From Prorocentrum cordatum (taxonomy: Eukaryota): a DNA stretch of 64,000 bases. A program made the position numbers and the translations under genes. The stretch spans positions 62,001 to 126,000 of the forward strand of contig CAUYUJ010000059.1 of assembly GCA_963575745.1 (NCBI GenBank), in the 5' to 3' direction. The notes below the pieces were generated by a model that searched no databases, was not told the DNA's origin, and worked only from the letters and a program-made list of their open reading frames with translations. Shown here piece by piece: positions 8,130-62,350 of this stretch (within the stretch, counting starts at the first letter, position 1; every line of letters starts with the position of its first letter).

Positions 8130-8366
8130 TCGTGGAGGACGGTCAACGGAGAGGGAGCATGCTGCCAAATAATTCCCAGATGAATGAAACAATGTTTCAA
8201 ACATGTTTCAAATATGTAGAACATGTTTGGAACGCGTTTAGGACATGTCTTACACATCTTAAACACAGTTTAAATTCAAGGATAGGACATGTCTTACACA
8301 TCTTACAAACACAGTTTAAATTCACTGGTAGGACTGTTAGGGTGTCCACTGTCGTGGCAGCCACAG
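8130..8366. mobile_element. MITE family M1 (TTGTGGA...TCCACAA-type ends, 8-bp TSD) with an internal ~44-bp duplication
   Basis: Homologous to 23390 and 24526; flanks GTCTTGTC / GTCCTGCC (6/8). Confidence 0.75.
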
Positions 8367-8470
8367 GTCCTGCCGGTCAACCTGTCCGTAGCCCAGGCCC
8401 GCCGTGGCCAGGAGAGCCCGTTGGGTTCCTACTCTCTGTGCTCGCCAGGGCAGCACGGTGAGCTGTCTCC

Positions 8471-8765
8471 GCCTGGAAGGCCTCTCGAGTGGGCATGGCT
8501 CCTTCGGTGTGCCCGTGGAGTCGGTCCCCGCGGGCGTCGATAATAGGCCGTGGCACGGCACGACGATTTGTTTCGGCCTGGAGGGCCTCTCGAGTGGGCA
8601 TGGCTCCTTCGGTGTGCCCGTGGAGTCGGTCCCCGGGCGTCGAGCATAGGCCAGGCGACCGCGACCGCGACGAGTTGTTTTGGCCTGGAGGGCCTCTCGA
8701 GGGGGCCTGGCTCCTCCTTCAGTACGCCTGTGGAGTCGGCTCCCCGGGCTTCAAACCTAGGCCGC
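8471..8765. repeat. Three tandem ~105-107 bp units
   Basis: GCCTGGARGGCCTCTCGAG starts at 8471, 8576 and 8683. Confidence 0.85.
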
Positions 8766-9419
8766 AGCACAGCGCGGGTGTCGGCTGTGGCGGAGCCGAG
8801 CTACAGGCAACCGCGGCAGGGATGCGCGCAGAGCTGAGTCGTCGCTGTCCGTGGAGGCGCCGGCCCCGGACCTGGTGTCCGAGCCCGGGACGTCGGTGGA
8901 GTCGGACGTGGTGCCCGAGCCGACACCTTTGGCGTGGACGGGGGCGTGGGTGGTGGCAGCGGTGTTGGTCGGAAACTGGAACATATGCACTGCCAGTGGC
9001 GGGCTGTCTTTCAATCCCAGGACCTCTGGAGGGTCGAGGACGACGCTGGGATGGTGTGGTGTACACTGGTTTCCCCGACGTCCTGGGAAAACAACGAAAA
9101 ATGTATACACCAGGGTCAGGTACACACCAGGATCCGCTCTCAAGTGCAAATTCCCATGCAGGGCTGGAAGAAGCGTCGGTGCATATAGAGTTCTGCCGCC
9201 GTCTTCTGCCCGCATGCGGAGTCGCCAGGTTGTCCCACCCCTCGAGTCTTGCCCTGGTGCGACCCCGCCGGTGGAGCCCTTGTTCGATGGTCTCGCCAAG
9301 ACCGGTGCCGAGGTCCATCGTGAGGAGAGCGGCAGGGTCCCACTCCGCAGGGCGCTCAGCGAAGCACGAGGGGGGGGCGCCCGCGTGGCCGACTGGTGCA
9401 CCGCCGCGCAGATGAAGCG

Positions 9420-10165
9420 GGCACGGCCCCAAGACGGCCCCAAGAGGGCCCCAAAGGAGCGCTCGTGAAGGGCCCACGGCGACCAGGGAGGCCCCCAATA
9501 ATCCGGTCCCAGAGGCCCCCAAGACGGCCCAGGGAAGCGCCGAGACGGCCCACGACGGTCCCGCAGGCCCCCGGGAGGCCCCAAGGCGGCTCCCCAAGAG
9601 GACCCCCAGGCGGGCCCCAAGGGGCAATCATTGCCGATTTTTTGCAGGAGGCAAGCATGCACGATTTCCGGTCGGTTTCTGCGTGTTTTTAGCGTTCTCG
9701 TTTTTGTCGGTTTTCGACCGCTTGCACAGGGCGTCCCAGGTCGCCCCCAATACGACCCAGGACCTCCAAAAGGGCCCTAAGACGGCCCAACAGGGTCCCA
9801 AGACGGCAACAGCAAGATGGCCTCATATGCCCCGAAGACGGCCCAAGAGAGAAGAGAGGTCAAAGTGGGCCCCTAGAAGACGTTCCAAGAGCGCTGCGGA
9901 GGGCCGAAGATGGCATCAAGACGGCCCTTCAAGACGGCCCAAGACTGAGGCCTCCAGGGCGGCCCAAGAGAACCCCGAGAGGACCTCCAAGAGGGCCTCA
10001 AGGGGCACGCGTCATTTCTTTGTTCGTTCGGTTGTCGAGTGGTGTTGGCGTCCCCGTTTTTTTCTCGCATCCCGACCGGCCAAGGCGGCCCCATGGGCTT
10101 CCCGGGTCGGCGCAAGACCGCCGACGAGGCCCCCGACAGGGCGTCCAGACGGCCCAAGAGGAACA
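9420..10165 (+). repeat. Dispersed degenerate ~10-11 bp (CCCCAAGAGG / CCAAGACGGC) repeat family
   Basis: Also at 52700-53220 and 56740-56900 (+), and at 5520-5600, 27860-28470, 30360-30520 and 38200-38360 (-). Confidence 0.85.
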
Positions 10166-10184
10166 CACGATGGATGGGGATGGG

Positions 10185-10616
10185 GGCGACGACGACGACG
10201 ATGGCGATGATCACGACGCTGACATTGACGACTTCCGGGAGTCTCGCGAGGTCTCCAGAGGCCCTCGGAGACCTCCGCGGAGGCCTTCCGATGCCAAAAC
10301 GGGGGCAGGAACGGACAGGCGCGGATGGGAACCTCGACGCCGCAGCCGATGGACGGCGTCGCCGACGCCGCCAGACAACGCTGTCCATGCCGCCCGCGAC
10401 GCCGACGACGAAGACGACACCGCCGACGACGCCGACGACAGCGCCGAAATTGAAAACGACGATGACGACAGCGCCGACGACGGAAACGACGCAGACGACG
10501 TCGACGACAACGATTGCGAAGACCGCGACGATGAGGACGACGATGACGACGCAGACGCCGACGCCAGCGCCGACTTCGACGCCGACGCCGACGTCGACGC
10601 CGACGCCGCCGCCGCC

Positions 10617-10659
<43 letters not shown>

Positions 10660-10757
10660 CCGCCGCCGACGCCGACGCCGACTCCGACGCCGACGACGCC
10701 GACGCCGACGCCGAGGCCGACGCCGACGCCGGCGACGACGACGACGACGACGACGAA

Positions 10758-10802
<45 letters not shown>

Positions 10803-11472
10803 AGCGCTGGCGACGACGCCGACGCCTGCACCGACGCCGACGCCAGCGCTTGCGCCGACGCCGACGCTGACGACGCCGACGCCGAAGAGACGCCGACGAC
10901 GAAGACGACGACGGCCATGGCGACGACGACCACGACGCCTGCACCGACGCCAGCGCCGACGCCAACGCCGACGACGACGACGACGCCGATGACGACAACG
11001 ACGCTGACGACGACGACAACGACGACGACGCTGACCATGACGACGACGACGCCGACGACAACGCCGACGACGATGACGACGAAGACGATGCTGACGCCGA
11101 CGTCGACGCCGACACCGACGCCGATGCCGAAGCGACCGACGACGATGACGCCGACACAAATGCCGACGCCGACGTCGACTTCGAAGACGACGCCGGTGAC
11201 GATGACGCTGTCGGCGCCGCCGACGACGCTGACGACGAAGCCGACGACGACGCCGACGACAGCGCCGACGGCGAAAACGACGAAGACAGCGCCGAAAACG
11301 GAAACGATGCAGACGCCGTCGACGAAGACGGCGAAGACCGCGACGATGAAGATGAGGCAGGCGACGACGACGACGCCGACGCTGACGCCGATGCCGATAC
11401 CGACGCCGACGACCTCGATGCCGACGAAGCCGTCGACGCCGACGACGACGACGCCGACGCCGACGCCGAGGC

Positions 11473-11509
<37 letters not shown>

Positions 11510-11865
11510 TCAGCCGACGCCGACGCCGACGCCGACGCTGACGCCGACCACGACGACTCCGACGAAAACGACGCAGACGACGCCGATGCCGCCGCCGCCG
11601 ACGACGACGCCGACGCCGCCGACGACGACGACTTCGACGACGACGACGACGACGACGCCGACGCCGTTGACGACGTCGACGACGACGCTTCCGCCGCCGA
11701 CGACGACGACGCCGCCGCCGCCGACGACGACGACGACGACGCCGCCGCCGCTTCCGCCGCTGCCGCCGCCGCCCTCGACGACGACGACGACGTCGACAAC
11801 GACGAGGACGAGGACGAGGACTAGGACGACGCCGCCTCATCCGCCGCAGTCGCCGCCGCCGCCGA

Positions 11866-11898
<33 letters not shown>

Positions 11899-12650
11899 AG
11901 AGGACTACGAGATGAACGACGACGACGACGCCGCCGCCGACGCCGACGACGACGACTACGAGGTGGACGACGACGCGGCGTCGCCGACGCCGACGCCGAC
12001 GCCGACGCCAATGCTGATGCCGACGACGAAAACGACGACGACGCCGCCGACGACGCCGACGACGACGACGACGACGAATACCACAGCGATGACGACGACG
12101 ACGACGACGACGACGGAGTCGACGCAGACGACGACGACGCCGACGCCACCGACGCCGATGCCGACGCCGACGCCGACGCCGAGGCCGACGCCGATGCCGA
12201 CGCCGATGCTGATGCCGACGACGAAAACGACGACGAAAACGACGCGTCCGACGAAGCCGACGACGACGACAAAGACCACAGCGATGACGACGACGACGAC
12301 GACGACGACGACGGAGACGACGCAGACGTCGCCGTCGCGGACGCCGACGCCGACGCCGATGCTGACGCCTCCGCCGCCGACGCCGATGCCGACGCCGACG
12401 ACGACGACGCCGATACAAACGCCGACGCCGACGCCGAAGACGTTGCCGATGACAGCGACGCAGACCACGCCGCCGACGACGCTGACGATGAAGCCGACAC
12501 CGCCGAGGACGCCCACGACGAAGACGGCACAGACGACAGCGCCGCGGACGGAAATGATGCAGAGGCCGACGACGAAGACGGCGAAGACCACACGACGAAG
12601 ACGGCGGCGGCGACGGCGACGACGACGAGGACGAGGACGACGACGACTGC
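10185..12650. repeat. (GAC/GCC)n minisatellite with an internal recurring block
   Basis: Trinucleotide runs; the block GACAGCGCC...GGAAAYGAYGCAGA...GCGAAGACC recurs near 10465, 11285 and 12535. Confidence 0.9.
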
Positions 12651-13234: not shown

Positions 13235-13426
13235 TTAAGTCGGGCCTGTCCCCCTACAGGGGGATTTGCGACGAAAAATAAAAAATGCTTCAAAAATAGT
13301 CCAAGCATAGTCCAAGCATAGTCTGGGGATTATTATTGGATTCTTTTTTGACCTTTTTGGCGCATTTTTGGGGTATCTTTTATTTTTCGTCGAAAATCCC
13401 CCTGTAGGGGGACACGCCCGACATAA
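13235..13426. mobile_element. MITE family M2 (TIR TTAAGTCGGGCCTGTCCCCCTACAGGGGGATTT), chimeric copy
   Basis: ~45-bp TIRs; its two flanks (GTCTTGGC, CCCTGGCG) match other M2 ends rather than each other. Confidence 0.9.
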
Positions 13427-15862: not shown

Positions 15863-16337
15863 CGATTTTCCCCAATTAGGCTTGCCCGAGGGGTTCTTAC
15901 TTGGTTAAAGGTTGGTGCCTCGGGAGGCTACTTTGCCTCTTCCTCGGAGGTTCCCCGGGTTCCTCAGGTTCTCCAGGTTCCTCAGGTTCCCCGGGTTCTC
16001 CGGGTTCCTCGGGTTCCCTGGGTTCCTCAGGTTCGCCGCCTCCGTTGCCCAGAGGTTCCACGGGTTCCTCAGATTCCCTGGCTTCCTCGGGTTCCTCGGG
16101 TCCCCCGGGTTCCTCGGGTTTCTTGGGTTTCTCGGGATCCCCGCCTCGGGTCCAAGCAATGCCAAACAATGCCAAACAATGCGAAGCAATGCCAATCAAT
16201 GCGAAGCAATGCCAAGCAATGCCAAGCAATTCCAGGCAATGTCAAGAAGTGCCAGGCAATGCCAAGCAATGCCAAGCTCTGCGCCCATGCAATAGGAAGC
16301 TTGCAGCTTTCCCCTCATTTGGGTCGCGCTGGGATCA
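15863..16337 (+). mobile_element. Conserved-end cassette carrying 9-bp GGTTCCTC(A/G) and 10-bp CAAGCAATGC arrays
   Basis: 5' block (TAGGCT...GGGTTCTTACT) and 3' block (GGGTCGCRCTGGGATCA) are shared with 32707-33259. Confidence 0.65.
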
Positions 16338-16811: not shown

Positions 16812-17521
16812 AAAAAAAAGAAGGGGACGAGGAAACGAGCAACAAGAGAAGTCGTCGGTCGCGGGGCCGGCGGAGGAGGACAACGCAGGGAGGAGGGAGG
16901 CAGAGGAGGTCGAGGGGGTACGAGGAGAGGAGCCACCAAAAGGGCGCCCTCGATCGATGGGCCGGCGGAGGCGGGACGCGGGGAGCATCGCGGGAGGGAG
17001 GCCCCCCCGCAGGACCCGTGGGGCGGCGCGGCGGCGGCGCCGCGGAGGCGCGGCGGGTGCGGGGGCGAGAGAGAGAGGGGCACGATCTCGCTCCCTCCTC
17101 GCACAGTCAAGACCAGGGGCGCCGACAGGGGGGACCCCCTCCTCAGGGCTCATCTCGGCTCCTCCAACTTCGATCCGATGTCGATGGCTTCCGATTCCTC
17201 TTCGACCTGGTATTTCGATTAGGGTTCCAGTCTCGCACGGGACGCATACTGGCCTGCCGATTTCCGCCGATTCGACATCTCCCGACTCGGCTGCCGATTG
17301 CCCCCGATCTGATCCATCTCGATCGCCGATCCGACTTTCGATTCTGAGCTCTCCTGCCTCCTCCTCCTCCTCCTCCTCTTCCTCCTCCTCCTCCTCCTCC
17401 TCCTCCTCCTCCTCCTTTCCTGCTCCCGCTCTGCAGGGCCCCGTCGTGTCGGTCCGGAGCGCCAGCGCGTGGGGCGGGGGCCGGCCCAGGGGAAAGCGGC
17501 ATCGGCACCCGATGTCGTTGA

Positions 17522-20679: not shown

Positions 20680-21046
20680 TCTGATCTCCCCAGAGCCCCC
20701 TCGAGCCAGGAAGAAAACTCACGGCGGGAGGTGTCTGTGTGTCCGAATGTTCGGCCTCCTGGGGCCCTCGCCGGGCCTCGGGAGCGTCAAGACGCGACTC
20801 AGGATGCAGAGCCGGTCACGGGGAAAGGGTCGGGACCTCTGGGGTTATGATGTTCCAACCTACTTGAGCCTGGATCACCAGGCAGAATGTCGAGCGCCCA
20901 AAAAAGTAACTACCGAAACTCGAGGGCTTTCACGCGTCGGGCCCTGGGAGACACTCGCCCGACACTGTTTCGACACTCTTTTGACACTTTTCCGGGTGCT
21001 CCAAATTATTTCTGGGATGCGGTCCTTCAGTGGGATGGGAACCACA

Positions 21047-21184
21047 TGAGCCGAAACGGTGTTTTGGCGTTTTCGTGGGCCGTTTTCGGTTCGACTTCGT
21101 TTTGCGGTAAAGGCGGAATGAAGACAAAACAAGGGAAAACGGAAACACAACGAGAACGAGAAACACCGTTTAGGTTCAGCCTTG
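21047..21184. mobile_element. Left-truncated copy of the hAT-like MITE at 63540
   Basis: AAACGGTGTTTTGGCG...AAACACCGTTTAGGTTCAGCC. Confidence 0.8.
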
Positions 21185-21194
21185 GTGTCCAGCG

Positions 21195-21425
21195 TCCTTT
21201 GGGAGTGATTCGAGCACTGGCGAAGCGTCCCGGCTTTTCCTGTGGGCCCACCAGAACATGTTCTGAGAACCTTCTGTGGTTTGCACGGACCTGTTCTTAG
21301 AACATGTCTGGCTGTGATTGCCTTGTTGTCGGGTCTATGTTCTAAGCGTTTCTGTTCTTAGAACTATTTCGGGAGTCGAAGAAGGTAGGCCTAACGGATT
21401 TCCGGGACGGTCGGTCCTTGCTCAG
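21195..21425 (+). mobile_element. Repeat family M3 with an internal GTTCTNAGAAC array
   Basis: GGCGAAGCGTCC start and GGTAGG...CCGGGA.GGTCG.TCC.TGCTCA end are shared with 55730-55974 and 63051-63300. Confidence 0.75.
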
Positions 21426-23389: not shown

Positions 23390-23581
23390 TTGTGGAGGTC
23401 GATTAATGGAGAGGAGGCATGCTGCCACATAGTTCCCAGATGTCTAAAACATGTTTCAAGCATGTTTTGAATATGTTAAAGCATGTTTTATACATTTACC
23501 GGACATGTTCCCGACATTTTAAACACATCTTTTAATTCGATGATAGGACTGTTAGGGTGTCCATTCTCGTGGCGTTCACAA
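23390..23581. mobile_element. MITE M1, 192 bp
   Basis: Flanks ACATAGGG / ACATAGGT (7/8); internal ACATGT repeats. Confidence 0.85.
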
Positions 23582-24525: not shown

Positions 24526-24718
24526 ATGTGGAAGTCGATTAATGGGGAGAGGAAGCGTGCTGCCAAATAATTTCCAGATGTCTAGAAGGTGTGTCAACCA
24601 TGTTTCAAATATGTAGACGCGTGTTTGAAACATGTTTAGAACATGTTTTACGCATTAAAAACACATCTTTAATTCAATGGTAGGACAAGTAGAGTGTCCA
24701 TTGTCATGGCATCCACAA
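24526..24718. mobile_element. MITE M1, 193 bp
   Basis: TGTGGA...TCCACA ends; flanks CGCTGAGA / TGCTAAGA (6/8). Confidence 0.85.
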
Positions 24719-26392
24719 TGCTAAGATTCCTACTGGGCCAACTTGCTTTCAGCCGGAGATGGCCGGGGGGGCGGTGGGACGGGGCCACCTCCCACCCGCC
24801 TAAGGGTCGAGGAAGCGTGCGACTCGATGAAGCCAGAACTCGGATCTGCCGAAGTTGTTTGACGAGCGAGTCCTGGATTTTGACGGTCCCGTTTTCGTGG
24901 GATGTTTGCACTGGGAGTTCGTGTCAAATTTCAGATCGGCGTTCGTCGTTTTCATGATGGCCCCGTCAGGCCAACCCGAGTCCCCCGTACCCGAGTATGT
25001 CGTCTTCCCGATGACGGTCCCGCCGCCTCTCGTGGACGAGCCAGGTCACACCGGAGAAGGAAGGATGTGGCATCTCGAGTCCTCTCACGCCAGCGGTGGG
25101 CCGCCACTGGTGTAAAGAGCGGCCAGAGGCTTGGGGTGTCTGGGCCCCAACACCATGGCCGCTCCACGGCCGCCGATCAATGGCCGAGGCCTCGCGCGAC
25201 GCGCCCGACAGCGGCCGCGGCGTCGCGGGACTCACCTCGGATCGGACCGGGGAGCTGGCGCCGCGTCGCCGCCAGGTAGGAGGACCGGGGCTGGGAGGCG
25301 CACGTGGAGGCTTCCGGGCAGCTCGGGCGCGAAGTGTACAGCCGGACCGAGGTATAAGATCGAGGTCGGGGAGGGTACCCCGATGTTCCTCGTGCTTGTT
25401 GACTGTTCATGTGCATCCTGGGGGAGGGTACCCTCGAATGTTCTTCAGTTTGGCTGGTGGAGGGTCTCGTCTATTCTTGAGGAATATTCTTCTGTCCTAG
25501 GTCCAGCCGTAAGAACAGTGTTCCCCCCCCCCCCCCCAGGCGTAGGCCGCCCGGTGTAGGGGAGGGGGGGGGGGCGAAGGCTGCGTCCGACCATAGGCGC
25601 CGAAGCCTACAGCAGCAACGAGGGGAGCCGGAGGAACACGAAGACATTGCGAATGTCGAGGAGGAGGAGGAAGAGGAGGAGGAGGAGGCCGGTCGGTCAG
25701 TCGGTCGGTCGGTCGGTGGCGGACCACGAATGGACCTGTCGTATGGGGGTGGGAGCATTTATGTTTTCCTGCGGCCCGAATGAAAATGAGGAGGAGGAAT
25801 CGAGGAGAGGAGGATAAAACAGGGCTAGGATCGGGATAAATCGCTCCAGAGCGTTCCGGAGCGCTCTCAGAGCGTTCCGGAACGCTCTGGAGCGGCCGCG
25901 GCGCCCAATACATCCTCCAAACCCGCCGATTCTCAGAGATTTCGAGTTATCCCGATCCGATGTTGTCCCGATCCTCGCGTCGTTCTAGAGGAGGAGGGGG
26001 AGAAGAGAAGGGAGAGAGTGAGAAGAATATGGGAATCGATGAAAGGAGGAGGAGGAGGAGGAGGAGGAGGGATCAGGCTATGGAGGAGGAGGAGGAGGAG
26101 AAGGACAGTTCCACTTCCTCTTCCGCCGCGGAGGACGAGTAAGAAGACGACGAAGATGACGAAAACGCCATCATCGCCGCCGAACAGAAAAGACGGAAAC
26201 GCCCCCTCGCTGGGGCTCTGACGAACCAGCGACGCCATTACGCCAGGAAGGAGCTGGCGGCGGAGCTCGACGCCATGCCCGAGCACCAGGCGCTCCACAG
26301 GGCCGTGGCCGAGACCGTTCGCGCCCCAGACGGCGACGGCGGCGACGGCGACGGCGGCGACGACGACGGCGGATGACGACGACGACGGCGGA

Positions 26393-27318: not shown

Positions 27319-28559
27319 TCCCTGGGCGTGGGCTGCTGCTGTTGAGAACACGCCTGGAGGGAAAGGCCACCCTCTCAGCGTCAGCGTCTCGTGCCTCTGC
27401 GCGGGGGTGCCGCGGAGACTGCCCCGGCCCGCGGCCGCGGCCCTCCCGGCAGCCGCCGGCGCCCCGGCCTCTGGCAGGGCTCCCCGTGCACGGGGCCCTG
27501 GCTGCGGGTCGAGGGCCGCAGACGCTGTCTTGGGCGCGCATCTGCAAAAAAAACTGACAAAAACAACTCCAAACTTTTGTGTTCAGTATTGTTGCTGGCA
27601 CAAAACAAAACAGTCAAAAACATGTGAAGCAGAACCCTCCACAATCTCCAGGGACCGCTCCGTGCTGCGTGTCAGCTTTCGCTTCGGCAGGGTTGAGGGC
27701 CGAGGATCAGGTTTGCTGGACGTCTGAGGGAGGAGGGTCCGAGGGGGGAGGGGAGGAGGGGTAATTGTTGACGCTTCGCGGATCCCCACTGGCCCATCCA
27801 GAAACAGATGGCCAGGCGAGTTGCTTTGATCAGGGAAGTGTAGACGCATGCAGTGTAACAACCGTTTTGGAAGTGCTTTCTCGGAGGTCTCTTGCAGCCA
27901 TCTTGGGTCTCTCGTGGGGTCCTAGCGGAGCCACTTGGGGCACTCTTGGTGCCCTCTTGGGGCATCTTGGGGTCCAGGTGCCCTGCTAAAGCCTTTCGGG
28001 AGGGTCTGGGAGGCCTCTTGGGGCCACCCTGGCTCCCAGGGCTCAAAAAGAGAGGGGTAAAGGATTCAGGCCCCCCCCTCGGAGGCTCACAAATGTCGTC
28101 TTGAGTCCCTCTGGAGCCGTTCTTGGAGCGCTCTTGAGCGCTCTTGGGGCCGTCTTGGAGCCCTCTTAAGTCCCTCTTGGGGCATCTTGCGGCCATTTTG
28201 GAGCCTCCGAGGCCCATTGGAAGCGATAAGGCGAGAAAGCAACAATCATAAACGTTCCTTTGGTTTGGGAGCCATTTTGGCCTCTTGGAGGGTCCTTGGA
28301 GGGCTCGGGGGGCACTTGAAACCATCTCGGGGCCGTCTTGAGGCCTCTTGAATGTGCGTCGGCGGCTATCTTGAGCCATCGTGGGAGCCATCTTGGAGGC
28401 CATCTTGGGGTCTCTTAGGCGCTCCTGGAGCCATCTTGTGGGCGATCTTAGGGGATATAACGCCTCGCGCCCCTCCCCTCTCCCGGGCCCACGGGAGGGG
28501 GTAGGGGGGAGGGGTCGAGCTGCCCGCCCGCCCGCAAGCCGTCTAGCTCACTCCCCCCG

Positions 28560-29714: not shown

Positions 29715-29777
<63 letters not shown>

Positions 29778-30198: not shown

Positions 30199-30541
30199 CC
30201 CTCCCCCGAGCAGGGGGAGTAGGGATATTGGCCGAGAGAAGACAAACTCGCTAAGGCACCTACGCCCAGACCAGAGGGATGGCGGGACTAATCCAGCTGC
30301 CGTCTGCAATTTCGCCACCTTGCCTGCACAGCATTTTGGGTGGCAGCTACTCGAGAAAGCAAGGGGGCCTGCTGGGGGCCTCTTGGGGCAGAAGTATCAA
30401 ATGCTTGGTTCGTGTTCCCACTCTTGGGCCCTTCTTGGGGCTCTCTTGTGCAGTCTTGGGCCGTCTTGGAGCCCTCTTGGCCGTCTTGCAGCTCTCTTGT
30501 GGGCCTTTTGAGGGGAGTCTGGTGGGATTCCATATCACACG

Positions 30542-30750
30542 ATACAACGAGCCCGCCGCAAGCGCCGAATTTTCCGTCAAAGTAAGTGGGTGGGTCGCGG
30601 GTGGGTCGCGGGTGGGTCGCGGGGTGGCTCGCGGGTGGGTTGCGGGTGGGTCGCGGGTTAGTCGCGGGTAATTCGCGGGCCGGGTCGCGGGAGGGACGAC
30701 AACAAACAACAACAACAACAACAATAACAACAACAACAACAACAACAACA
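30542..30750 (+). repeat. Head + (GGGTCGC/GGGT) minisatellite + (CAA)n module; inverted copy at 41610-42002
   Basis: GCCGCAAGCGCCG head, minisatellite and GGGACGACRACAAACAAC junction are all mirrored. Confidence 0.8.
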
Positions 30751-31483: not shown

Positions 31484-31558
31484 CCAACAATAATTATTCT
31501 TAAGAAGAAATAATGTTCAACAACAACAACAACAACAACAACAATAGCAGCAACATCA

Positions 31559-36320: not shown

Positions 36321-36565
36321 GGCGGGGCAAGCCCCCCCGGGGGGGGAGGGGGGGAGGGGGGGGGGGGAACAACACAACACAACACAACGCACCCCTACAG
36401 GAGGATCCTGTGGGATCCGTACAGGGTTCCATAGGATTCCCACACGACCCTTACAGGGTTCCATAGGACGCCCATAAAACCCCTACAGAGTTCCATCGGA
36501 CTCCCATTCGACCCCCACAGGGTTCCATCGGAGTCCCATAGAACCCCTACAGGGTTCCATCGGAC

Positions 36566-37466
36566 TATTTCGGCGCACCCCTCACGCGGCTCGTGGCCCT
36601 ACAGGGGGCGCAGCCGAAGGCTTCGGGACCATTTCGGCGCACCCCTCACACGGTTCGTGGCCCTACAAGGTGCGCAGCCGAAGGCTTTCGCGGCCCCACA
36701 TGTGGCGCACCCGAAGGCTTCGGGCCCATTTCGGCGCACCCCTCACACGGTTCGTGGCCCCACAGGGGGCGCAGCCGAAGGTTTCGGGCCCATTTCGGCG
36801 CACCCCTCACACGGTTCGTGGCCCCACACGGGGCGCAGCCGAAGGCTTCGGGACCCTTTCGGCGCACCCCTCACACGGTTCGTGGCCCCACAGGGACCGC
36901 ACCCGAAGGCTTCGGGCCCATTTCGGCGCACCCCTCACACGGTTCGTGGCCCCACAGGGGGCGCAGCCGAAGGCTTTCGCGGCCCCACATCGGGCGCACC
37001 CGAAGGCTTCGGGTCCATTTCGGCGCACCCTTCACACGGTTCGTGGCCCCACATGTGGGCGCAGCCGAAGGTTCCGGGCCCATTTCGGAGCGCCCCTCAC
37101 ACGGTTCGTGGCCCCACATGGGGCGCACCCGAAGGCTTCGGGCCCATTTCGGTGCACCCCTCACACGGTGCGTGGCCCCACAGGGGGCGCAGCCGAAGGC
37201 TTCGGGACCATTTCGGCGCACCTCTCACACGGTTCGTGGCCCTACAAGGTGCGCAGCCGAAAGCTTTCGCGGCCCCACATCGGGCGCACCCGAAGGCTTC
37301 GGGCCCATTTCGGCGCACCCCTCATACGGTTCGTGGCCCCACACGGGGCGCAGCCGAAGGTTTCGGGTCCATTTCGGCGCACCCCTCACACGGTTCGTGG
37401 CCCCACATGGGGTGCACCCGAAGGCTTCGGGTCCATTTCGGCGCACCCCTCACACGGTTCGTGGCC
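36566..37466. repeat. 64-bp minisatellite, 13 units, with a ~289-bp higher-order period
   Basis: CATTTCGGCGCACCCCTCACACGGTTCGTGGCCC + CACAGGGGGCGCAGCCGAAGGCTTCGGGCC; an extra 33-bp subunit every fourth unit. Confidence 0.95.
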
Positions 37467-38829
37467 TGCAGGGGCCGCCTCCGTGGAAAAACCTATTCAG
37501 GCCGCCATGGCGCCTGAAACGGGCTTCCAGCGGGCCGCGGGCGTCGAAAAACGCATTCCCCGCCATCGTGCCTTCGCGCTCCGATCTCAATTTTTTTGTT
37601 GTTTTTTAGCTGGGTTCGGTTTCTGACCGCCCTGGGGCTCGGAACGGGCCTCCAGGGGCCGCCTGGGTGGAAAATTGCATTCCCCGCCCTCCTGCCTTTG
37701 CTGCTGCGCTCCGCTCCCCAAGCGTGGAGGAGGAGGAAGAGGAGGCGGAGGAGGAGGGCGAGGACGAGGTTGGGGGAGGAGGAGAATTATGAGGATGAGG
37801 AGGATGAGGATCAGGAGGAGGAAGAGAGGATGAGGAGGAGGATGAGGAGGAGGAGGAGGAGGAGGAGGAGGAGGAGGAGGAGGAGGAGGAGGAGGAGGAG
37901 GAGGGGGAGGGGGAGGAGGAGGAGGGGAAGAAAAGGAAGAGGGGAACGTCGTCGACGACGACGACGATGATGGTGATGATGATGATGATGAGGATGATGG
38001 TGATGCTGATGTTGATGATGATGATGATGACGACGACGATGATGATGACGGTGACGATGACGATGGCGATGGCGATGTTGATGATGATTATCATCATGTT
38101 GACAATGATGATGTTGACGGGCACGGCGATGATGAAAATGATGATGAGGATGGTGGCCGATGGGGATGAGGAAGGACGCCCTGGCGGTTTTCTGGGGCTG
38201 TTTTCGAAGGGTATCGGAGGTCATCTTGGGTCCTTCCAGAGGCCTTGTTGGACCCGTTTGGGGCTCTTTTGGGGCCGTCTTGGGCCAGGTTTGGGCTCTG
38301 TTGGGGCCGTCCTGGGCCGTCCATGGGGCCTGATGGGCCGTGCGGAGGACACCCTTGGAATCCGCTGTCCTTGTTGGGAGTTTCCGACACGTGTCGTCGA
38401 CATTCGTTTTGGTCGTCAGCAGAAGGAGGAGGAGGAGGAGGAGGAGGAGGAGGAGGAGGAGGAGGAGGAGGAGGGGGAGGAGGGAGAGGAGGGGGAGGAG
38501 GAGGATGTGCGTGGAAGAGGAGGAACGTGGGATGAGTAGGACAGACCAGGGGGGAGGGGGAGGACGAGGAATGATACCGAATGTGGAAGACTGGGGTGGA
38601 GCCGTCGATCATCGCCGCTGACGTGGTCTGTCGCGCGTGCGCCGCCCCCTGGGGCCACGGGGGGTGGGGGGCGAGGAGGAGCAGGACGAGGAAGAGGATA
38701 ACGACAACAAGGCTGATGATGACGATTATGCTGATGATGAGGAGGGTGAGGATAAGGAAGAAGAGGAGTTGCATGATTATGAGGATTTGGGCGGACGAGG
38801 AGCAGATGAGGATGATGAGGACCACGATG

Positions 38830-41390
38830 ATCCCTACAGGGATCCTGTAGGGTCCCTGTAGGGATCCATAGTGATCCTCTAGGGCCCCTGTAGGGATCTA
38901 GAGGGATCCCATCTGGCCCCTCTGTTTACAAAAAGCTATCCCATAGGGTCCCTGTAGAGGTCTAGAGGCATCCTATTGGGTCCCTGTAGAGATCCAGAGG
39001 GATCCCTATAGGGTCCTTATAGGGATCTACAGCGATCCCATAATGTCCCTGAAGGGGCCCACAGGGATCACATAGGGTCCCTGTAGGGATTTGAGGGACC
39101 CCATGGGGACCTTGTAGGGAGCCCCAGGGATCCCATAGGGTCCTTATAGGGATCTACAGCGATCACACAATATCCCTGTAGGGATCCAGAGATCCCATAG
39201 GGTCCCTGTATGGGCCCACAGGGATCCCACATGGTCCCTGTAGGGATCCACACGGATCCCATAGGGTCCCTGTAGGGGTCGACAGGGATCCTATCCGGTC
39301 CGCGTACGGACCCACAGGGATCCCATATGGTCCTTGTGGGGATCCACAGGGATCCTATCCATAGGGATGCTCTAGGATCCCTATAGGAATCCATAGGGAT
39401 CCTCTAGGCCCGTTGTAGGGACCCATAGGCATCCTATAGGGCCCCTGTAGGGATCGATGGGGATCCTCTCGTACCCCTGCAGGGATCCATGGGGATCCTC
39501 TAGGATGCAGGGATCCATAAGGATCCTCTCGTATCCCTGTAAGGATCCATAGGGATCCTCTGGGATCCCTGTAGGGGTCCACAGGGATCCTCTAGGATCC
39601 CTGTAGGGGTCCACAGGGATCCTCTAGGATGCTTGTAGGGATCCATTGGGATCCCCCGTAGGATCCCTGTAGAGGTCCACAGGGATCCTCCAGGATCCCT
39701 GTAGGGATCCACAGGGATCCTCTAGGATCCCTGTAGGGATCCATAGGGATCCCCTTGGATCCCTGTAGGGATCCATTGGGATCCTCCAGGATCCCTGTAG
39801 GGGTCCACAGGGATCCTCCAGGATCCCAATAGGGATCCATTGGGATCCTCCAGGATCCCTGTAGGGATCCATTGGGATCCTCCAGGGTTCTTGAAGGGAT
39901 CCATACACAGATCCTCTAGGATTCTTGTAGGGATACAGATCCTCTATAGGGATCCACAGGGATCCTCTAGGATGCTTGTAGGGATCCACAGGGATCCTCT
40001 AGGATGCTTGTAGGGATCCACAGGGATCCTCCTCTAGGATGCTTGTAGGGATCCACAGGGATCCTCTAGGATGCTTGTAGGGATCCACAGGGATCCTCTA
40101 GGATGCTTGTAGGGATCCACAGGGATCCTCTAGGATGCTTGTAGGGATCCACAGGGATCCTCTAGGATGCTTGTAGGGATCCACAGGGATCCTCTAGGAT
40201 GCTTGTAGGGATCCACAGGGATCCTCTAGGATGCTTGTAGGGATCCACAGGGATCCTCTAGGATGCTTGTAGGGATCCACAGGGATCCTCTAGGATGCTT
40301 GTAGGGATCCACAGGGATCCTCTAGGATGCTTGTAGGGATCCACAGGGATCCTCTAGGATGCTTGTAGGGATCCACAGGGATCCTCTAGGATGCTTGTAG
40401 GGATCCACAGCCTCTAGGATGCTTGTAGGGATCCACAGGGATCCTCTAGGATGCTTGTAGGGATCCACAGGGATCCTCTAGGATGCTTGTAGGGATCCAC
40501 AGGGATCCTCTCAGATCCCTGTAGGGTCCTTGTAGGGATCCAGAGGGATTCTATAGGGTCCCTGTAGGGATCCACAGGGATTCTAGAGGGTCCCGTAGGG
40601 GTCTAGAGGGTCCCTGTAGGGATCCACAGGTCTAGAGGAGGTCCCAGGGATTCTATAGAGTCCCTGGAGGGATCCACAGGGAGTCTATAGAGTCCCTGGA
40701 GGGATCCACAGGGAGTCTATAGAGTCCCTGGAGGGATCCACAGGGATTCTATAGAGTCCCTGGAGGGATCCACAGGGAGTCTATAGAGTCCCTGGAGGGA
40801 TCCACAGGGATCCTATAGAGTCCCTGGAGGTCCCTGGAGGGAGTCTATAGAGTCCCTGGAGGGATCCACAGGGATTCTATAGAGTCCCTGGAGGGATCCA
40901 CAGGGATTCTATAGAGTCCCTGGAGGGAGTCTATAGAGTCCCTGGAGGGATCCACAGGGATTCTATAGAGTCCCTGGAGGGATCCACAGTCTATAGAGTC
41001 CCTGGAGGGATCCACAGGGAGTCTATAGAGTCCCTGGAGGGATCCACAGGGATTCTATAGAGTCCCTGGAGGGAGGGATTCTATAGAGTCCCTGGAGGGA
41101 TCCACAGGGATTCTATAGAGTCCCTGGAGGGATCCACAGGGAGTCTATAGAGTCCCTGGAGGGATCCACAGGGATTCTATAGAGTCCCTGGAGGGATCCA
41201 CAGGGAGTCTATAGAGTCCCTGGAGGGATCCACAGGGATTCTATAGAGTCCCTGGAGGGATTCTATAGAGTCCCTGGAGGGATCCACAGGGATCTATAGA
41301 GTCCCTGGAGGGATCCACAGGGATTCTATAGAGTCCCTGGAGGGATCCACAGGGATTCTATAGAGTCCCTGGAGGGATCCAGGGAAGAGT
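38830..41390. repeat. 32-bp satellite (11+10+11 GGATCC-type subunits)
   Basis: Homogeneous blocks GGGATCCACAGGGATCCTCTAGGATGCTTGTA (~39945-40510) and GGGATCCACAGGGAKTCTATAGAGTCCCTGGA (~40650-41380). Confidence 0.97.
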
Positions 41391-42106
41391 CCTCCTAGAG
41401 GGTCCCGAACGGATTCCGATGGGAATCCGTAGGGAGCTTGTAGGATTCATACAGAATTCATACAGAATTCATACAGAATTCGTTGTGTTGTGTTGTGTTG
41501 TTCCCCCCCCCCCCCTCCGACTCACCGGGGGGGCGGGACCGGCCTCCACCACTGTGGCGGACGCGGGAAGTGAAGCCCCGGACCCCGGGGGGACCATGCC
41601 GGCCTGTACCTTGTTGCTGTTGTTGTTGCTGTTGTTTGTTGTCGTCGTCCCCCCTGCGACCCACCCGGCGACCCACCCGGCGACCCACTTTGCGACCCAC
41701 CCCGCGACCCAGCCCGCGACCCACCCCGCGACCCAGCCCGCGACCCATCCGCGACCCACCCCGTGACCCGCCCGCGACCCACCCGCGACCCACCCCGCGA
41801 CCCACCCCGCGACCCACCCCGCGACCCACCCCGCGACCCACCCGCCACCCACCCTGCGACCCACCCCGCGACCTACCCGCGACCCACCAGCGACCCACCC
41901 GCGACCCGGTTAGTGACCCACCCACGACCCACCCGCCACCCACCCCGCGATCCACCCATATTGATTTAACAAAAACCGGCGCTTGCGGCAGGTTCATTGC
42001 ATAATCTGTGGAAGTTAGGCGCTTGCGGCGGGCTTCTTCAGAGCCTCGCAGATTGACGACGTATTCGCCGCCTCCTCAGTATTGTCGGCAACTGCGGGGT
42101 GCTACG

Positions 42107-44786: not shown

Positions 44787-46733
<1,947 letters not shown>

Positions 46734-52333: not shown

Positions 52334-52660
52334 GTTATGATGTCGTCATCTTCGCCGCCACCACGGCAGCCATCGTCGTCGGCGGCGGCCTCGTCGTCGA
52401 CGACGACGTTGTCGTCTTTGCCGTCGTCGTCGTCGCCGTCGTCGTCGTCGGCGGCGGCGTCGTCGTCGTCGGCGTCGCCACAGCCGCCGCCGTCGGCGTC
52501 GCCGCCGTCGGCGTCGTCGTCTTCGCCGCCGTCGTCGTCGTCGTCGGCGTCGCTGCCGTCGTTGTCGTCGTCGTCTTCGCCGCCGTCGTCGTCGTCGTCG
52601 TCGGCGTCGCCGCCGCCGCCAACGTGACCGCTGTCGTCATCGTCGTCGGCGTCGGCGCCG
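51715..52660. repeat. (GAT)n switching to (GTC/GCC)n microsatellite
   Basis: Read directly. Confidence 0.95.
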
Positions 52661-53331
52661 CCGCGGGGCCTTACGATAGTGGGGAAGGGAATTCGAGCCC
52701 ACATCTCCAGGCCTCCGCCTCAAGAGGACCCAGAAGATCGTCATCAGGCCCCCAAGGACCTCCCCGAGAGGACCCAAGAGGGCCCCAAAACGCCCCAAGA
52801 CAACTCCAAGAGAACCCCCAAAGAGAGCCCGAAGAGAAACATCGCCGCCCCATTCCTTGAGGACAGCGCGCATTTGTAGCACACTCGCTGTTTCCGTGCG
52901 CGCAGCATCCAAGACGGCCCCAGAGGCCCCCAGCAGAACCCCCAAACAGCCCAAGAGGTCCCCACAGGGCTCCAAGACGGCCCAAGAGGACCCCAAGACG
53001 GCCCAAGAGGCACCCGGGCCAGCCCTGGACGGCCCCTAGAGGGCCTCGAGAGGGCCCCGAGAGGGGCCTTGGGGGGGAGGTCTCGAGCAGACATGTCGAG
53101 GCCTCCGCCCCAAGGGGACCCCGATGATCGCCAGCAGGCCCCCAAGGATCCCCCCAAGAGGGCGTCACTGGGCCCAGCGGCCGCACCAGCCCCGCCGGCC
53201 GACCCTGGGGGATCCTTGGCTGGCCAGAGGCGGCCCCCGGGGGGGGAGAGCGCCCCCCCCCCCCTCCCGCGCAGCAGGCGAGAGCTGGCCGACAGCGGCC
53301 CACGGAGCCCGCGCACCGATGAGCGGGGGCC

Positions 53332-55631: not shown

Positions 55632-55977
55632 GCTCTCCTCTGCGATAGGGGCCCTCCCGGCCGCGGGCGCCAGGCGCGGCGGGCGAGAGTTGGACCCCCA
55701 ACAGCGGGTCCGTGATCTTTCTTCGGTGGCGAGCGAGGGGATCAAGCAGTGGCGAAGCGTCCTGGCTCGCCGAGTGGCCTCCCAAGAGTGTTCTGAGAGC
55801 CTTTCGTGGTCTGCACGGAATGTTCTTAGAGCATTTCTGGCCGGGGTGTGTCTTGTTGTAGCACATCGGTTTAATGTTCTACGAACAGTGTCTTTGTTCT
55901 AAGAACATTTTTGAGTTCTAAGAACATGTCGTGGTAGGCCTATAGAAATGCCGGGAAGGTCGGTCCCTGCTCAAGGG

Positions 55978-56128: not shown

Positions 56129-57674
56129 TTTTCGGACGTTGTCGAAGTTTCTCGGCGATCTTTCGCCCTCGAGGTGCGTTCCAGCAGCTGCGCCTCGCCG
56201 AGAGCGTTCTAGGGGTGCCGGGATCGTCCCGAACGGCCGCAGGAAACCTGAGGTATGACCCAGAAACCACATTCGGCGGCGCGCCCGGGGGGAAGTGAAA
56301 AGGAGAAGGCCTTCTCAGAAGGCGGCGGGACTTATCAGAAGCCCTCGCGCCTTCTGAGAAGTGTTCCGTGTCTTCGGGGAAGGCTTCAGAACACTTTTCA
56401 GAAGGCCTGGGGATTTCCGAGTCTTCTGAGAAGGCCCACCTCTTCCAATTTCCCCCCCACGCTCGCCGCTAATCTCTGTGCACCCGTCTCCTCCCCCTTG
56501 GCACTCGCAGTCGTCGGCCGAGTTTTTGAAACGTGTGCTTCGGCAGACGCCTCTTTGGCCCGGGCCTGCTGGCAGACGATGGCCTTCGCCAGCTGCCCGT
56601 CGCGTTGCCTGACGTGCCATATCAGATAGCTCAAGTCATACTTACTTGAGTTAACACTGTGTGGCTACATTTTTTGCACCTGTCCCGCGCCGCGGTGCCC
56701 TGGTCTATCTGCGCCCGCTTCACTTCCGCTCAGAAAAAAAAGGCCCCCCAAGAGGACCCAATAGGCCCAAAAGAGGCCCGATGGAGGCCCCGAAAGGCTC
56801 CCCAAGAGGCTTCAAAACTGCCTCCACGAGGCTGCCCAGAGGCTTCCCCAGAGACCCGACCAGATAGTTCAAGAGGCCTCAGGCGACCCCCGTGGAGACT
56901 ACAAAATACATCTTGCACGCTTCAAATCGAATATACAGGTATGCACCCTCCCCTCACTACTCATCATCCTCTTTCTCCTCCTCCCCCTCCCACTCCTCGT
57001 CATCCTCCTCATCTTCTCTCATCTTAACGCCTCCGCCAAACCCCCAACCGACGGTCCGTGAGGTCGCCGCCGCCGCCGTCGTCGTCTTCGACGTCGTCGT
57101 CGTCATCGTCGTCGGCGTCGCCGCCGCGGGCGTTGCCGGCGTCGTCGTCATCGTCGTCGCCGCCGTCGGCGTCGCCGTCGTCGTCATCGTCGCCGCCGCC
57201 GTCGTCGTCATCGTCGTCGTCGCCGTCGTCGTCGTCGTTGTCGTTGTCGTTGTCGTCGTCATCGTCGTCGTCGACGTCGCCGTCATCGTCGGCTCGTCGT
57301 CGGCGGCGTCGCCCACGCAGGCGCAATTATTGGCCGCCGTCGTCGTCGTCATCGTCGGCGCCCCCGCCGCCGTCGTCGTCGTCGCCGTCGTTGTCGTCGT
57401 CGGCGGCGTGATTCTGTCCGCCCTCGTCGCTCTCGCCGCCACCGCCGTCGGCATCGGCGGCGGGCGCCGCCCCGCTCAGGCGGCGCGGCGGGCCCGAAGA
57501 AGCGGCGGAGGCCGCCGCGGCGCAGGGAGGGCGCCGCCGCCGGCGCGGGCCCCGGGGCGGGCGAGGCGGGCGCCGCGCGCCTTCCGCGGCACCATCCGCG
57601 TCGCCACTGGGGGAGCGGGTCGCCGTGAAGCAAGCGTCGGCGGCGCGCCGAGGGGGGAGGCAAGACGCCTATCG

Positions 57675-60410: not shown

Positions 60411-60728
60411 CGGAGGTTGATAGAGACCTCCTATGCCCTGACGCGTCGAGTAAGGCATTGGCCGTCTTCGGTTGGCGAGAGGGCGCCGCGGCCGTCATCT
60501 CTGCGGGTCCGGGTCCGTCTGTTTCGGCCCTGGGCCGTTTTCACCAAAGGGAGGTTTTACTAAAGGGAGGTTTTACTAAAGGGAGGTTTTACGAAAGGGA
60601 ATCGGCCGCTTTCGGTCCGCGAGAGGGCGCCGCGGCCTTCGTTTTTGCGGGTCCAGGTCCGTCTGTTTCGGTCCTGGGCCGTTTTCATCAAAGGGAGGGT
60701 CTACTAAAGGGAGGTTCGTCCACCGCCG
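60411..60728. mobile_element. MITE M4 with an internal duplication
   Basis: Homologous to 17522-17693; CAGAAG on both flanks. Confidence 0.7.
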
Positions 60729-60754
60729 ACAGAAGTCCCTTTCGCAGCAGGACG

Positions 60755-61270
60755 AGGGCGCCCCTCCGGGCCTCCTCGGAGACGCCGAGGGCCCGCCTCG
60801 AGGGCCCTGCCCTCGAGGCTCGAGGATCGCGCCTCGAGGCTCGATCCTCGAGCCTCGGAGGCAGGGACGGCTCCCGCGATCCTCGAGGGCCCCGGAGCAG
60901 GGCGAGAGAGCCCCTCCGAGCCGCCTCGGAGACGCCGAGAGGACCCGCCCCGCGAGGGCCGCAGGGACCTCGCGCCTCGGGGCCCGAGGGGCGGGCCCCG
61001 AGGGGCCCGAGGGGGCTCGCGCCTCGGGGCTCGAGGGGGTCCCAAGGGCGCCTCGAGGGCTCGAGGGCTCCGAAGGGCGCCTCGAGGGGTCCCAAGGGCG
61101 CCTCGAGGGCTCCAAGGCTCCGAAGGGCGCCTCGAGGGGTCCCAAGGGCGCCTCGAGGGGCTCGAGGGCGCCTCGAGGGGCCGAGCGGGCGCCTCGAGGG
61201 GCTCGAGAAGGTCGAGGGGTCCTCCCGAGGATCGGGCGGCCGCCTCGAGGACCTCGAGGGCCGACGGCCT
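60755..61270. repeat. CTCGAG/GGCGCC-rich minisatellite (50-bp unit at 61037-61160)
   Basis: GGGTCCCAAGGGCGCCTCGAGGG at 61037, 61087 and 61137. Confidence 0.85.
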
Positions 61271-61444
61271 CGCCCTGCCAGGGGCCGCCGGAGCGCCCCC
61301 CCCCCCGGGGGGGGCGGGCGCGGCGGGCGCCCCGCGCCGCCGCCGCCGGGGGGGGGGGGCGCCGCCCGCCGTGGGGCGCCTCGCCCTCGAGGGCTCGGAG
61401 GGCTCGGCGAGTTCCGTCGGGCCGGTCCCTCTGCATCTCGGGGG

Positions 61445-61631
61445 CGGAAAAGAGGGGGGTGATGACTCGGGGGGGATGGATATCATGGCGAGGGCCATGA
61501 TTTTTCCCCAGATCTCATGGCGCCTCTTCTTATTTCATTACGTCCCTCGTCCCTGGCCCCCCCGCTGGGCCGCGCACATGCCGCCGGTCATGATTTGCAC
61601 CCCCCCCTCTTGGACACCCCCCTCTTGGCCG
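61445..61631. mobile_element. 187-bp palindromic element (CGG...CCG)
   Basis: CGG..AAGAGGGGGGTG...ATCATG inverted at both ends; CCTCTGCATC in both flanks. Confidence 0.65.
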
Positions 61632-62350
61632 CTCCCGACCTCTGCATCGGGATCGGGAAAGCAGTCTGGTCAGCGGTGGGATCGGCCGAGTCCCTTCTCA
61701 AGTGGCTGCCCAGAGGGCCGAGCACTGGCCTGACCGATTGTGGCCCTGGAGCGTCAGGTCCACGGCCGATGGGTCGAGTCAGCGCTCGGGCGGCCCCGGT
61801 GGCACTCGATCAGTTCGCCTGCGCCCAGCGCTGATGTGGCTGATTGTCGGTTCCCTACCACAGGGGGAGTGTTCAAAAATAGTTTCAAAATATTCGGGTG
61901 ACGACTTGCTGAGCAGGTTTTGGCCATTTGGGTGCACTTTTGGGGGGTATTTTCAGTTCTTCGTCCAGGATCCGCCTGTAGGGGGACACGCCCGACTTCA
62001 GCTTGGCACCTCCCCAGAGATCCAACGTGTTGAAAGAGTCAAGGCGGAGGTTTTTCGCAATGTTCGGCCTTTGGGGGCCCTCGCCAGGCCCCGGGACCGT
62101 CAAGAAACGACTCGGGATGAAAATCGGGTCACAGGGAAGTGGGTCGAGACTTCCGGGGACCCCGCATTGAAGAAATCACGACATCGGATCTCTGGGAATC
62201 TCCGCAGAAGCGGTCGGGCGGTGCTGGGACGAGGATGAATGTCCCAGGGCGTTCCGGAACGCTCTCGGAGCGTTCCGGGGCGCTCTGAGACAAGGCCGCG
62301 GCGCCCGAGACATTCTCCAGAGCCGCTGGTCGCAGAGATTCTGCACGAAC

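Follow-up and report, generated by a model that had tools for sequence, protein, structure and literature searches.

The sequence period of about 10.5-10.8 bp found in a 64-kb stretch of the Prorocentrum cordatum genome (positions 62,001 to 126,000 of contig CAUYUJ010000059.1; the whole stretch is called the window hereafter) is real. We attribute it, with a probability of roughly 60%, to a few amplified repeat families and not to a general phasing of palindromes. By an assignment made by eye, two families supply 36 of the 38 periodic segments of the window. One is family A, a degenerate T-free minisatellite (CCCAAGA(C/G)GG, with the unit GGCCC(C)AAGA(C/G)), which is absent from the list given in the first-pass annotation of this DNA; the other is a satellite with a 32-bp unit built on GGATCC. 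That annotation had proposed that unrelated sequences converge on dyads lying on one face of the helix, possibly under selection connected with DNA packaging. The proposal is unsupported: dyads are unphased beyond one satellite and a few small elements, and what looks like phased palindromes is mostly a by-product of tandem repetition.

The 10-11-bp period and the families that carry it

Tandem Repeats Finder (TRF), run at a score of at least 40, retrieved 136 non-redundant arrays from the window. The histogram of their periods has local peaks at 11 bp (13 arrays), 10 bp (6), 12 bp (7) and 21 bp (7), while arrays at neighbouring periods are rarer (one at 7 bp, one at 8, two at 9, three at 13, two at 14, two at 20 and one at 22). 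At a score of 40, two-copy arrays are easiest to detect near period 10, so the histogram alone is weak evidence and, for this reason, two threshold-independent tests were used. The first compared the sequence with itself over a fixed length of 16 positions, allowing at most one mismatch, and counted loci per lag: there were 4 at lag 10, 9 at 11, 1 at 13, 0 at 14, 1 at 16, 2 at 17, 0 at 19, 11 at 21, 4 at 22 and 15 at 32. The second was a Fourier analysis of 400-bp segments over periods of 4-40 bp, in which power above the 99th percentile of shuffles was taken as significant. Significant power was found in 60 of the 316 segments, and in 38 of these 60 the peak lay at 9.5-11.6 bp (p ~4e-26 by segment), a band that makes up 8.5% of the scanned frequency space. 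When the segments were merged into loci, 12 out of 26 fell in this band (p ~4e-7). The first-pass annotation had named two outcomes that would speak against its idea, namely the lack of an excess at 10-11 bp and the descent of all arrays from a single family. The idea survives both, because the excess over shuffles is present at segment and locus level and because family A, the GGATCC satellite, the small dispersed element M1, the tandem ATTCATACAGA and the GCGTTCCGGA palindromes have no evident sequence relation to one another.

That the pattern is a product of chance or detection, created by the TRF threshold and by an eye for palindromes, is extremely improbable. The preference of the score threshold for two-copy arrays near period 10 would act in this direction, the exact two-copy duplications (one at 10 bp, two at 11, one at 12 and none at 13-30) are too few to weigh, and several of the palindrome examples listed in the annotation fail the tests described below. 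However, the Fourier signal is free of such a threshold and very strong at both levels, and family A recurs in independent metagenome contigs. An artefact is thus largely refuted for the periodicity and stands only for the weaker of the listed examples.

Fourier segments and loci were given to families by eye. Of the 38 periodic segments, 20 are family A-like, about half of the signal, and 16 belong to the GGATCC satellite and its variant at 36.2-36.6 kb; the remaining two come from M1 and from an array of GGGGACAGTGG. Counted by family, 4 of the 12 families with a period above 6.5 bp fall in the 9.5-11.6 bp band, which gives p = 0.11 under a null uniform in frequency and p = 0.005 under a null uniform in period. 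The excess of the helical period at the level of families is, therefore, ambiguous.

Blocks of family A, about 150-250 bp long, alternate with T-rich spacers of about 80-120 bp (sizes estimated by eye), and this composite is found at seven or more sites of the window, in either orientation (Table 1). The motif CCCAAGASGG occurs 11 times, against 0.68 expected. CAAGACGGCC is a typical half-unit of 10 bp and CAAGAGGGCCC a typical one of 11 bp. The position profile consists of CAAGA and a G/C block, with no A or T tract as a periodic element. A-like variants, recognized by eye, lie at 48.3, 60.8-61.3 and 62.0 kb.

Other identities for family A were considered and rejected. G-quadruplex arrays on its G-rich strand are not indicated, with 0-2 canonical motifs (four or more runs of at least three G, loops of 1-7 nt) per window locus. 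A coding heptad repeat, in which 21 bp would correspond to 7 codons, conflicts with the frequent periods of 11, 32 and 53 bp, which break the frame, and with a three-unit mode of 32 bp; the open reading frames (ORFs) lying over the arrays have no Pfam family. Units resembling GCCATTTTGG at about 28.2 kb recall the spliced leader, but a full match is lacking. In the form used here, the spliced-leader motif has no match in the window at up to three mismatches, and its 16-nt core has none in the 120 metagenome loci analysed below.

For the GGATCC satellite, the annotation had described units at 11/10/11 bp, and this is borne out: pairs of the same word peak at distances of 10 bp (45 pairs), 22 (49), 32 (91) and 42 (34), and the subunits average 10.67 bp. 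The unit of the neighbouring satellite at 36567-37466 carries palindromes of 13-17 bp (CCCGAAGGCTTCGGG) together with a GCCCCA..TGGGGC hairpin.

All TRF arrays and periodic loci were then masked, leaving 103 segments of 256 bp (26 kb) as a sample of unique DNA. Their mean spectrum rises at 10.7 bp (four bases, z = 5.8; purine/pyrimidine, z = 6.2), and this bump stems from about 15 of the 103 segments, several of them flanking known loci. Without these segments z falls to 1.9, a value biased downward by the selection. The median power at 10-11 bp (0.55) equals that of the control band at 13.5-16 bp (0.55) and exceeds that of the band at 7.8-8.5 bp (0.42). Within the power of 26 kb, there is no general 10.5-bp signal in ordinary sequence.

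Table 1. Repeat arrays and dispersed elements located in the window (positions are those of the window)
Feature	Position	Strand	Period, evidence or relatives
Family A blocks, GGCCCCAAGAC / GGCCCAAGAG units, T-rich spacers between	9200..10300	+	Fourier peak 10.9-11.6 bp; CCCAAGASGG matches
Family A blocks, TCTTGGGGCC units	27600..28450	-	Fourier peak 10.5-10.9 bp
Family A block	30350..30520	-	TRF period 10
Family A-like block, TTGGGGCC units	38200..38350	-	TRF, sequence, CCCAAGASGG search
Family A blocks	52700..53200	+	Fourier peak 10.5-11.1 bp
Family A block	56730..56880	+	Fourier, sequence
CCTCGAGGGG / GGGTCCCAAGG arrays, periods 7, 21, 29-30 and 50 bp	60780..61260	+	A-like by eye
32-bp GGATCC satellite, subunits of 10+11+11 bp, higher orders of 64 and 96 bp	38836..41381	+	TRF; Fourier peak 10.3-10.8 bp in all segments
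32-bp ACAGGGTTCC variant of the GGATCC satellite	36420..36566	+	TRF, Fourier
32/64/128/161/225-bp satellite with CCCGAAGGCTTCGGG palindromes	36567..37466	+	Dominant harmonic 16 bp, not 10.7 bp
GGGTGGGTCGC array, 11-bp units	30586..30695	+	Reverse-complement relative with 12-bp units at 41652-41957
GAATTCATACA / ATTCATACAGA x3.4, exact 11-bp tandem with GAATTC	41445..41481	+	TRF
ATAGTCCAAGC x2.5, exact 11-bp tandem without palindrome	13296..13323	+	TRF
CCAAGCAATG x12.6, 10-bp array	16152..16277	+	
M1 copy 1, CATG-type sites about every 10.8 bp	8148..8350	+	
M1 copy 2	23420..23570	+	
M1 copy 3, 79.7% identity to copy 1 over 143 bp	24546..24700	+	
M3 with GTTCTNAGAAC palindromes	63068..63301	+	Other copies 55742-55975 and ~21250-21370; masked self-BLAST
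21-bp period of palindromes, CAGAGCGTTCCGGAACGCTCTG as a 22-bp perfect palindrome	25842..25894	+	Relative at 62245-62290

Unit order of family A in marine metagenome contigs

A two-unit pattern of family A, searched in metagenome contigs, retrieved at least 121 stretches, and 120 loci (243 kb) were analysed. Among the matches listed, 87 of the 120 loci carry at least eight CCAAGA motifs on one strand, with a maximum of 67; a small number of long loci rich in G+C have the look of bacterial sequence matched by chance. Family A is, thus, abundant in marine metagenome contigs. The part of the window that these loci match most is the family A region at 52700-53200: of 662 BLAST hits, 294 begin within the 500-bp bin that opens at 52500. 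The T-rich spacers are 76-90% identical among contigs, yet they have no match to the spacers of the window, so that the family A motif is common to the window and to contigs whose spacers differ from it. One locus (L050) matches window sequence outside family A, within 30775-31500, at 94% over 224 bp, a sign that samples of this kind may include the organism of the window or one closely related to it. Contig L029 bears a block of family A at one of its ends and encodes, over 593-4408, a protein with a Prim-Pol domain (E 9.5e-17). The adjoining ORF weakly matches DUF5906 (24.2 bits, below the 27.6-bit cutoff), and the pair looks virus- or mobile-element-like.

In the metagenome loci, CAAGA anchors follow one another at 10 bp (571 times) or 11 bp (856 times), and far less often at 9 bp (25) or 12 bp (41). 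The distances between all pairs of anchors form peaks at whole multiples of 10.58 bp, with n reaching 13. Family A, thus, keeps a helical-repeat period over many turns, as does the PATC-like DNA discussed below, and both its TRF arrays and the 10/11-bp anchor spacing place it among head-to-tail tandem repeats of the minisatellite or satellite kind. Across 49 arrays, the mean period is 10.58-10.64 bp, with per-array means between 10.41 and 10.84 bp. Unbroken chains comprise 995 units in 108 non-duplicate loci, and in 81% of cases the unit after a 10-bp unit is 11 bp long (lag-1 r = -0.32). The sums of ten successive units have a variance of 1.0, compared to 3.1 for independent draws. Identical units make up 0.108 of the pairs at lag 2 and 0.040 at lag 1, against 0.073 +/- 0.007 in within-chain shuffles. 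The TRF periods of A-like arrays in these loci are most often 21 bp (59 arrays), followed by 32 (32), 11 (26) and 42 bp (14). Given the lag-2 identity and the TRF mode at 21 bp, the units are therefore ordered as a 21-bp dimer of a 10-mer and an 11-mer, which explains their alternation without selection and through which family A keeps its 10.6-bp phase. Higher-order structure is, accordingly, present in both major families, as an identity greater at lag 2 than at lag 1 in family A and as orders of 32, 64 and 96 bp in the GGATCC satellite. Non-A arrays in the same loci, separated by a filter that is leaky, have scattered periods, of which 10-12 and 20-22 bp are somewhat frequent.

We propose that slippage or unequal exchange amplified a few families whose base unit may have been about one helical turn long, either by chance or because this length was acquired. 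Family A would grow in two-unit steps, with the 21-bp dimer as its working repeat and variants of 32, 42 and 53 bp, and would have spread within a dispersed and probably mobile composite repeat. The GGATCC satellite is a higher-order repeat of three diverged subunits of ~10.7 bp, and in M1, M3 and the GCGTTCCGGAACGC element short internal repeats are passed from copy to copy. Palindromes seem phased only where the repeated unit holds one, as with GGATCC, ACATGT and GAATTC. In family A, AAGA alternates with GGCC at intervals of half a turn, an arrangement predicted to favour one bend direction or to give intrinsic curvature.

Several observations weigh against amplification as a complete account. 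The mean unit length per array is under-dispersed, with a standard deviation of 0.097 over the 49 arrays, where independent draws would give 0.127 (95% range 0.102-0.153). A first-order alternation model predicts, as a rough estimate, a variance of ~1.6 for the ten-unit sums, above the 1.0 found, so that the period itself may be under some constraint. The type of unit (C or G after CAAGA) alternates weakly and its length strongly, and the compensation of lengths is also seen within C->C unit pairs (odds ratio 0.34, p 0.0016), where the dimer does not explain it. The contigs are short-read assemblies of repeats, and the order of their units could be partly an assembly artefact. In the window itself, small unrelated arrays also have units of 10-11 bp (ATTCATACAGA, ATAGTCCAAGC, CCAAGCAATG, GCGGCTCTACG and AAACATGTTTC). 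The loci at 48.2-48.3, 60.8 and 62.0 kb were placed by eye, kinship between units of 10-11 bp is unprovable, and a count of two families may be too low or too high. Finally, the genome was sampled over 64 kb only.

Some of these observations would be expected if the helical repeat had been tuned by selection, with units that match the helix being favoured or retained because the DNA would then be curved or bend more readily in one direction. Possible roles would be packing in nucleosome-poor chromosomes, the binding of DVNP or HLP-type proteins along one face, and a mechanical function like that of the PATCs (periodic An/Tn clusters) of Caenorhabditis elegans. The under-dispersed mean of 10.58-10.64 bp, the phase kept over ten units and the compensation within same-type pairs all argue for tuning, as does the retention of the A motif between the window and contigs with non-matching spacers, but the 21-bp dimer already accounts for the alternation, and unique DNA is without diffuse periodicity. 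The GGATCC satellite (10.67 bp) and M1 (10.7-10.8 bp) have similar periods. Relaxed B-DNA repeats at ~10.5 bp and nucleosomal periodicities lie at ~10.0-10.2 bp, and the periods found here are closer to the former. Other arrays of the window, however, show no such adjustment. The 11-bp units of GGGTGGGTCGC at 30588 are matched by units of 12 bp in its reverse-complement relative at 41652, and in the 32/64-bp satellite at 36.6-37.6 kb a harmonic of 16 bp, not of 10.7 bp, prevails. The longer periods, which the annotation had placed near multiples of 10.5-10.7 bp, lie there in 7 of 19 cases, against a chance share of 0.36, and the family-level excess is ambiguous, as noted above. A precedent is offered by a preprint that, in the part relevant here, describes C. 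elegans Helitron minisatellites remodelled to a 10-bp period (bioRxiv 10.64898/2026.08.08.743475). Conversely, unit-size peaks at 10-11 bp also appear among the nucleosomal genomes covered in PMC3152781, and a recent preprint (10.1101/2025.01.24.634729) calls into question whether these chromosomes follow the cholesteric liquid-crystal model. On balance, tuning under selection appears unlikely.

The arrays described here are similar to higher-order-repeat satellites and minisatellites in general in their head-to-tail order, their diverged subunits in 21-, 32-, 64- and 96-bp orders, their dispersal and their rapid turnover. They differ from satellites in general in that the base subunit is one helical turn in both major families, and in that the family A motif is common to the window and to many marine contigs with differing spacers. 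Nucleosome-positioning studies have described the pattern (A/T)3NN(G/C)3NN, in which A-rich and GC-rich blocks half a turn apart make DNA curved or bendable. Family A resembles this pattern in its AAGA and GGCC(C) blocks, which lie ~5 bp apart and repeat every 10.6 bp, and departs from it in having no true A-tracts. The 10- and 11-bp repeats of Daphnia, Apis and Drosophila are AT-richer classical satellites. In the part of their survey that concerns unit size, Mayer et al. 2010 (PMC3152781) give maxima at 10 bp for Daphnia and Apis and at 11 bp, the densest class, for Drosophila, and very few repeat types contribute to the longer repeat classes. These genomes are like the window in having local maxima at 10 or 11 bp and unlike it in being nucleosomal; in the literature searched, we found no comparison of such peaks with dinoflagellates.

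The closest parallel to a mechanical role is provided by the PATCs, which, in the portion of the preprint that deals with their origin, are A/T tracts with a 10.0-bp period derived from a 35-bp Helitron minisatellite unit in a nucleosomal genome (bioRxiv 10.64898/2026.08.08.743475). They and family A are both extended non-coding arrays of near-helical period, borne by repeats, of minisatellite origin and dispersed over many loci, and a mechanical role, not one of motif binding, is proposed for both. In contrast to PATCs, family A is GC-rich (GGCCCC + AAGA), with a period of 10.6 bp and a 21-bp dimer. It would be a long shot to propose that, in a nucleosome-poor dinoflagellate and in related marine protists, repeat families were tuned to the 10.6-bp repeat of relaxed DNA, with the tracts, curved or biased in bend direction, serving as mechanical or packing elements of permanently condensed chromosomes, and that the GC-rich 21-bp dimer, in phase over at least ten turns, is a counterpart of PATCs that evolved without nucleosomes. 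If a 10.6-bp tuning were selected, it would constitute a sequence-level signature of DNA packing without nucleosomes, and family A and the GGATCC satellite are concrete arrays in which this can be tested. Both are further examples of minisatellites and satellites with a helical period, although whether they are unpublished cannot be claimed. Our search, outside which most subscription journals and supplements lie, found no report of a 10-11-bp periodicity in dinoflagellates or of a CCCAAGA(C/G)GG minisatellite, and four family A 11-mers had literature matches to primers only.

Palindromes and small dispersed elements

The sequences quoted in the first-pass annotation are present where it had placed them. 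Its claim that palindromes as a class are set on helical turns did not hold, given that spacing peaks at 10, 22, 32 and 42 bp arise only through same-word GGATCC pairs. With 36400-37480 and 38800-41400 excluded, pairs of 6-mer palindromes number 26 at 10 bp and 28 at 11 bp, on a baseline of ~28, and are slightly raised at 21 bp (36). Dyads with an arm of at least 4 show no spacing peak at 10-11 bp in the window. Short perfect palindromes are enriched 1.5-2x in non-tandem DNA, yet unphased. Compared to local dinucleotide shuffles, the whole window contains 425 palindromic 8-mers instead of 318 and 63 palindromes of the form 6+N+6 instead of 26; 40 kb of non-tandem DNA contain 284 palindromic 8-mers instead of 188 (z = 6.7) and 105 10-mers instead of 53 (z = 8.0). 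Inverted microsatellite junctions contribute to this excess, and perfect palindromes lie at flips of microsatellite orientation at 37947-37963, 52391-52408 and 32849-32877 (CGTCGTCGACGACG; AGCTAAGCTTAGCT).

The individual examples of phasing fared unevenly. Near 41453, the threefold GAATTCATACA was confirmed as an exact 11-bp tandem. ATAGTCCAAGC is an exact tandem of the same period, but it contains no palindrome. The CTCGAG array at 61 kb does have a period of 21 bp, but its sites lie at distances of 8-9 and 12-13 bp and so do not lie on one face (R at 10.5 = 0.27, p 0.44). No significant phasing was detected for CGAT at 17170-17345 (Rayleigh p ~0.2) or for TCCTNAGRA at 48770, and the sites related to CTTCTNAGAAG at 56310 are irregular when counted on the sequence (21, 18, 34, 15 and 28).

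Several examples that had been treated as separate are copies of one dispersed element, namely the three copies each of M1 and M3 and the pair at 25850 and 62250. ACATGT had been reported about every 11 bp in M1; CATG-type spacings of 11/11/10/22, 11/21/11 and 44/11/9/22/44 in the three copies agree with this, and the best period is 10.7-10.8 bp (Rayleigh p 0.007-0.02 per copy). At 25850 and 62250, units of the GCGTTCCGGAACGC type form a 21-bp period that consists of long palindromes. In M3, GTTCTNAGAAC accounts for 8 sites against 0.01 expected, in 3 loci that are three copies of one element. The sites reported earlier are there, and their phasing is marginal: none of the spacings (33, 61, 19, 53 and 39 bp) is more than 3 bp off a multiple of 10.5 (chance 0.06). 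M1 and M3 both have dispersed copies with conserved ends (three each). Since M1, M3 and the 25850/62250 pair are dispersed multi-copy elements, their internal spacing was inherited and not independently reached. The segments 20746-21370 and 62059-63633 share several collinear matches of 81-92% identity, which suggests one larger dispersed element of ~1.5 kb that bears GTTCTNAGAAC, with a third, partial copy at 55742-55975.

The CATG-type sites of M1, GTTCTNAGAAC of M3 and GCGTTCCGGAACGC could be subterminal or internal binding sites, set on one face of the helix, for a protein that acts as a dimer, for instance a transposase. Cut-and-paste transposons usually have arrays of subterminal repeats. 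Conserved ends and site spacing in three copies of M1, the strong over-representation of GTTCTNAGAAC and long, perfect palindromes of up to 22 bp are consistent with such arrays, which would, however, fit the small elements only and leave family A and the GGATCC satellite unexplained, the source of nearly all periodic segments. The spacing in M3 is only marginally phased, and a Pfam search found no transposase or other family at the curated cutoff among the 14 + 73 window ORFs scanned. We consider an identity of the motifs in the small elements as protein-binding arrays quite improbable.

Composition and other features of the window

The window has ~62% G+C, which fits the 59.7% given for P. 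cordatum in the genome-wide figures of PMC10666404, and a single gap of 100 N at 45721-45820. Microsatellites, minisatellites and satellites are abundant throughout. No Rfam family at gathering score and no tRNA were found in the window. Long open frames (372, 530, 403 and 331 aa) follow one another on the + strand of positions 1-4665, without a Pfam match, and may be a dark gene or simply result from the G+C-rich composition. An imperfect (CGACGA)n-type tract of ~2.2 kb at 10397-12647 has an inverted counterpart 40 kb away, at 52373-52660, with arms that are ~70% complementary. A local segmental duplication of ~2 kb links 32200-34410 to 34460-36260 at 90-96% identity, and takes in a 41/82-bp repeat (33326 and 35199) with its flanking microsatellites. 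Many contigs of two DNA runs match most of the stretch 27000-31500. Within it, 30775-31500 reaches a very high summed contig word depth in both runs (tens to hundreds of thousands), indicative of a dispersed repeat of high copy number.

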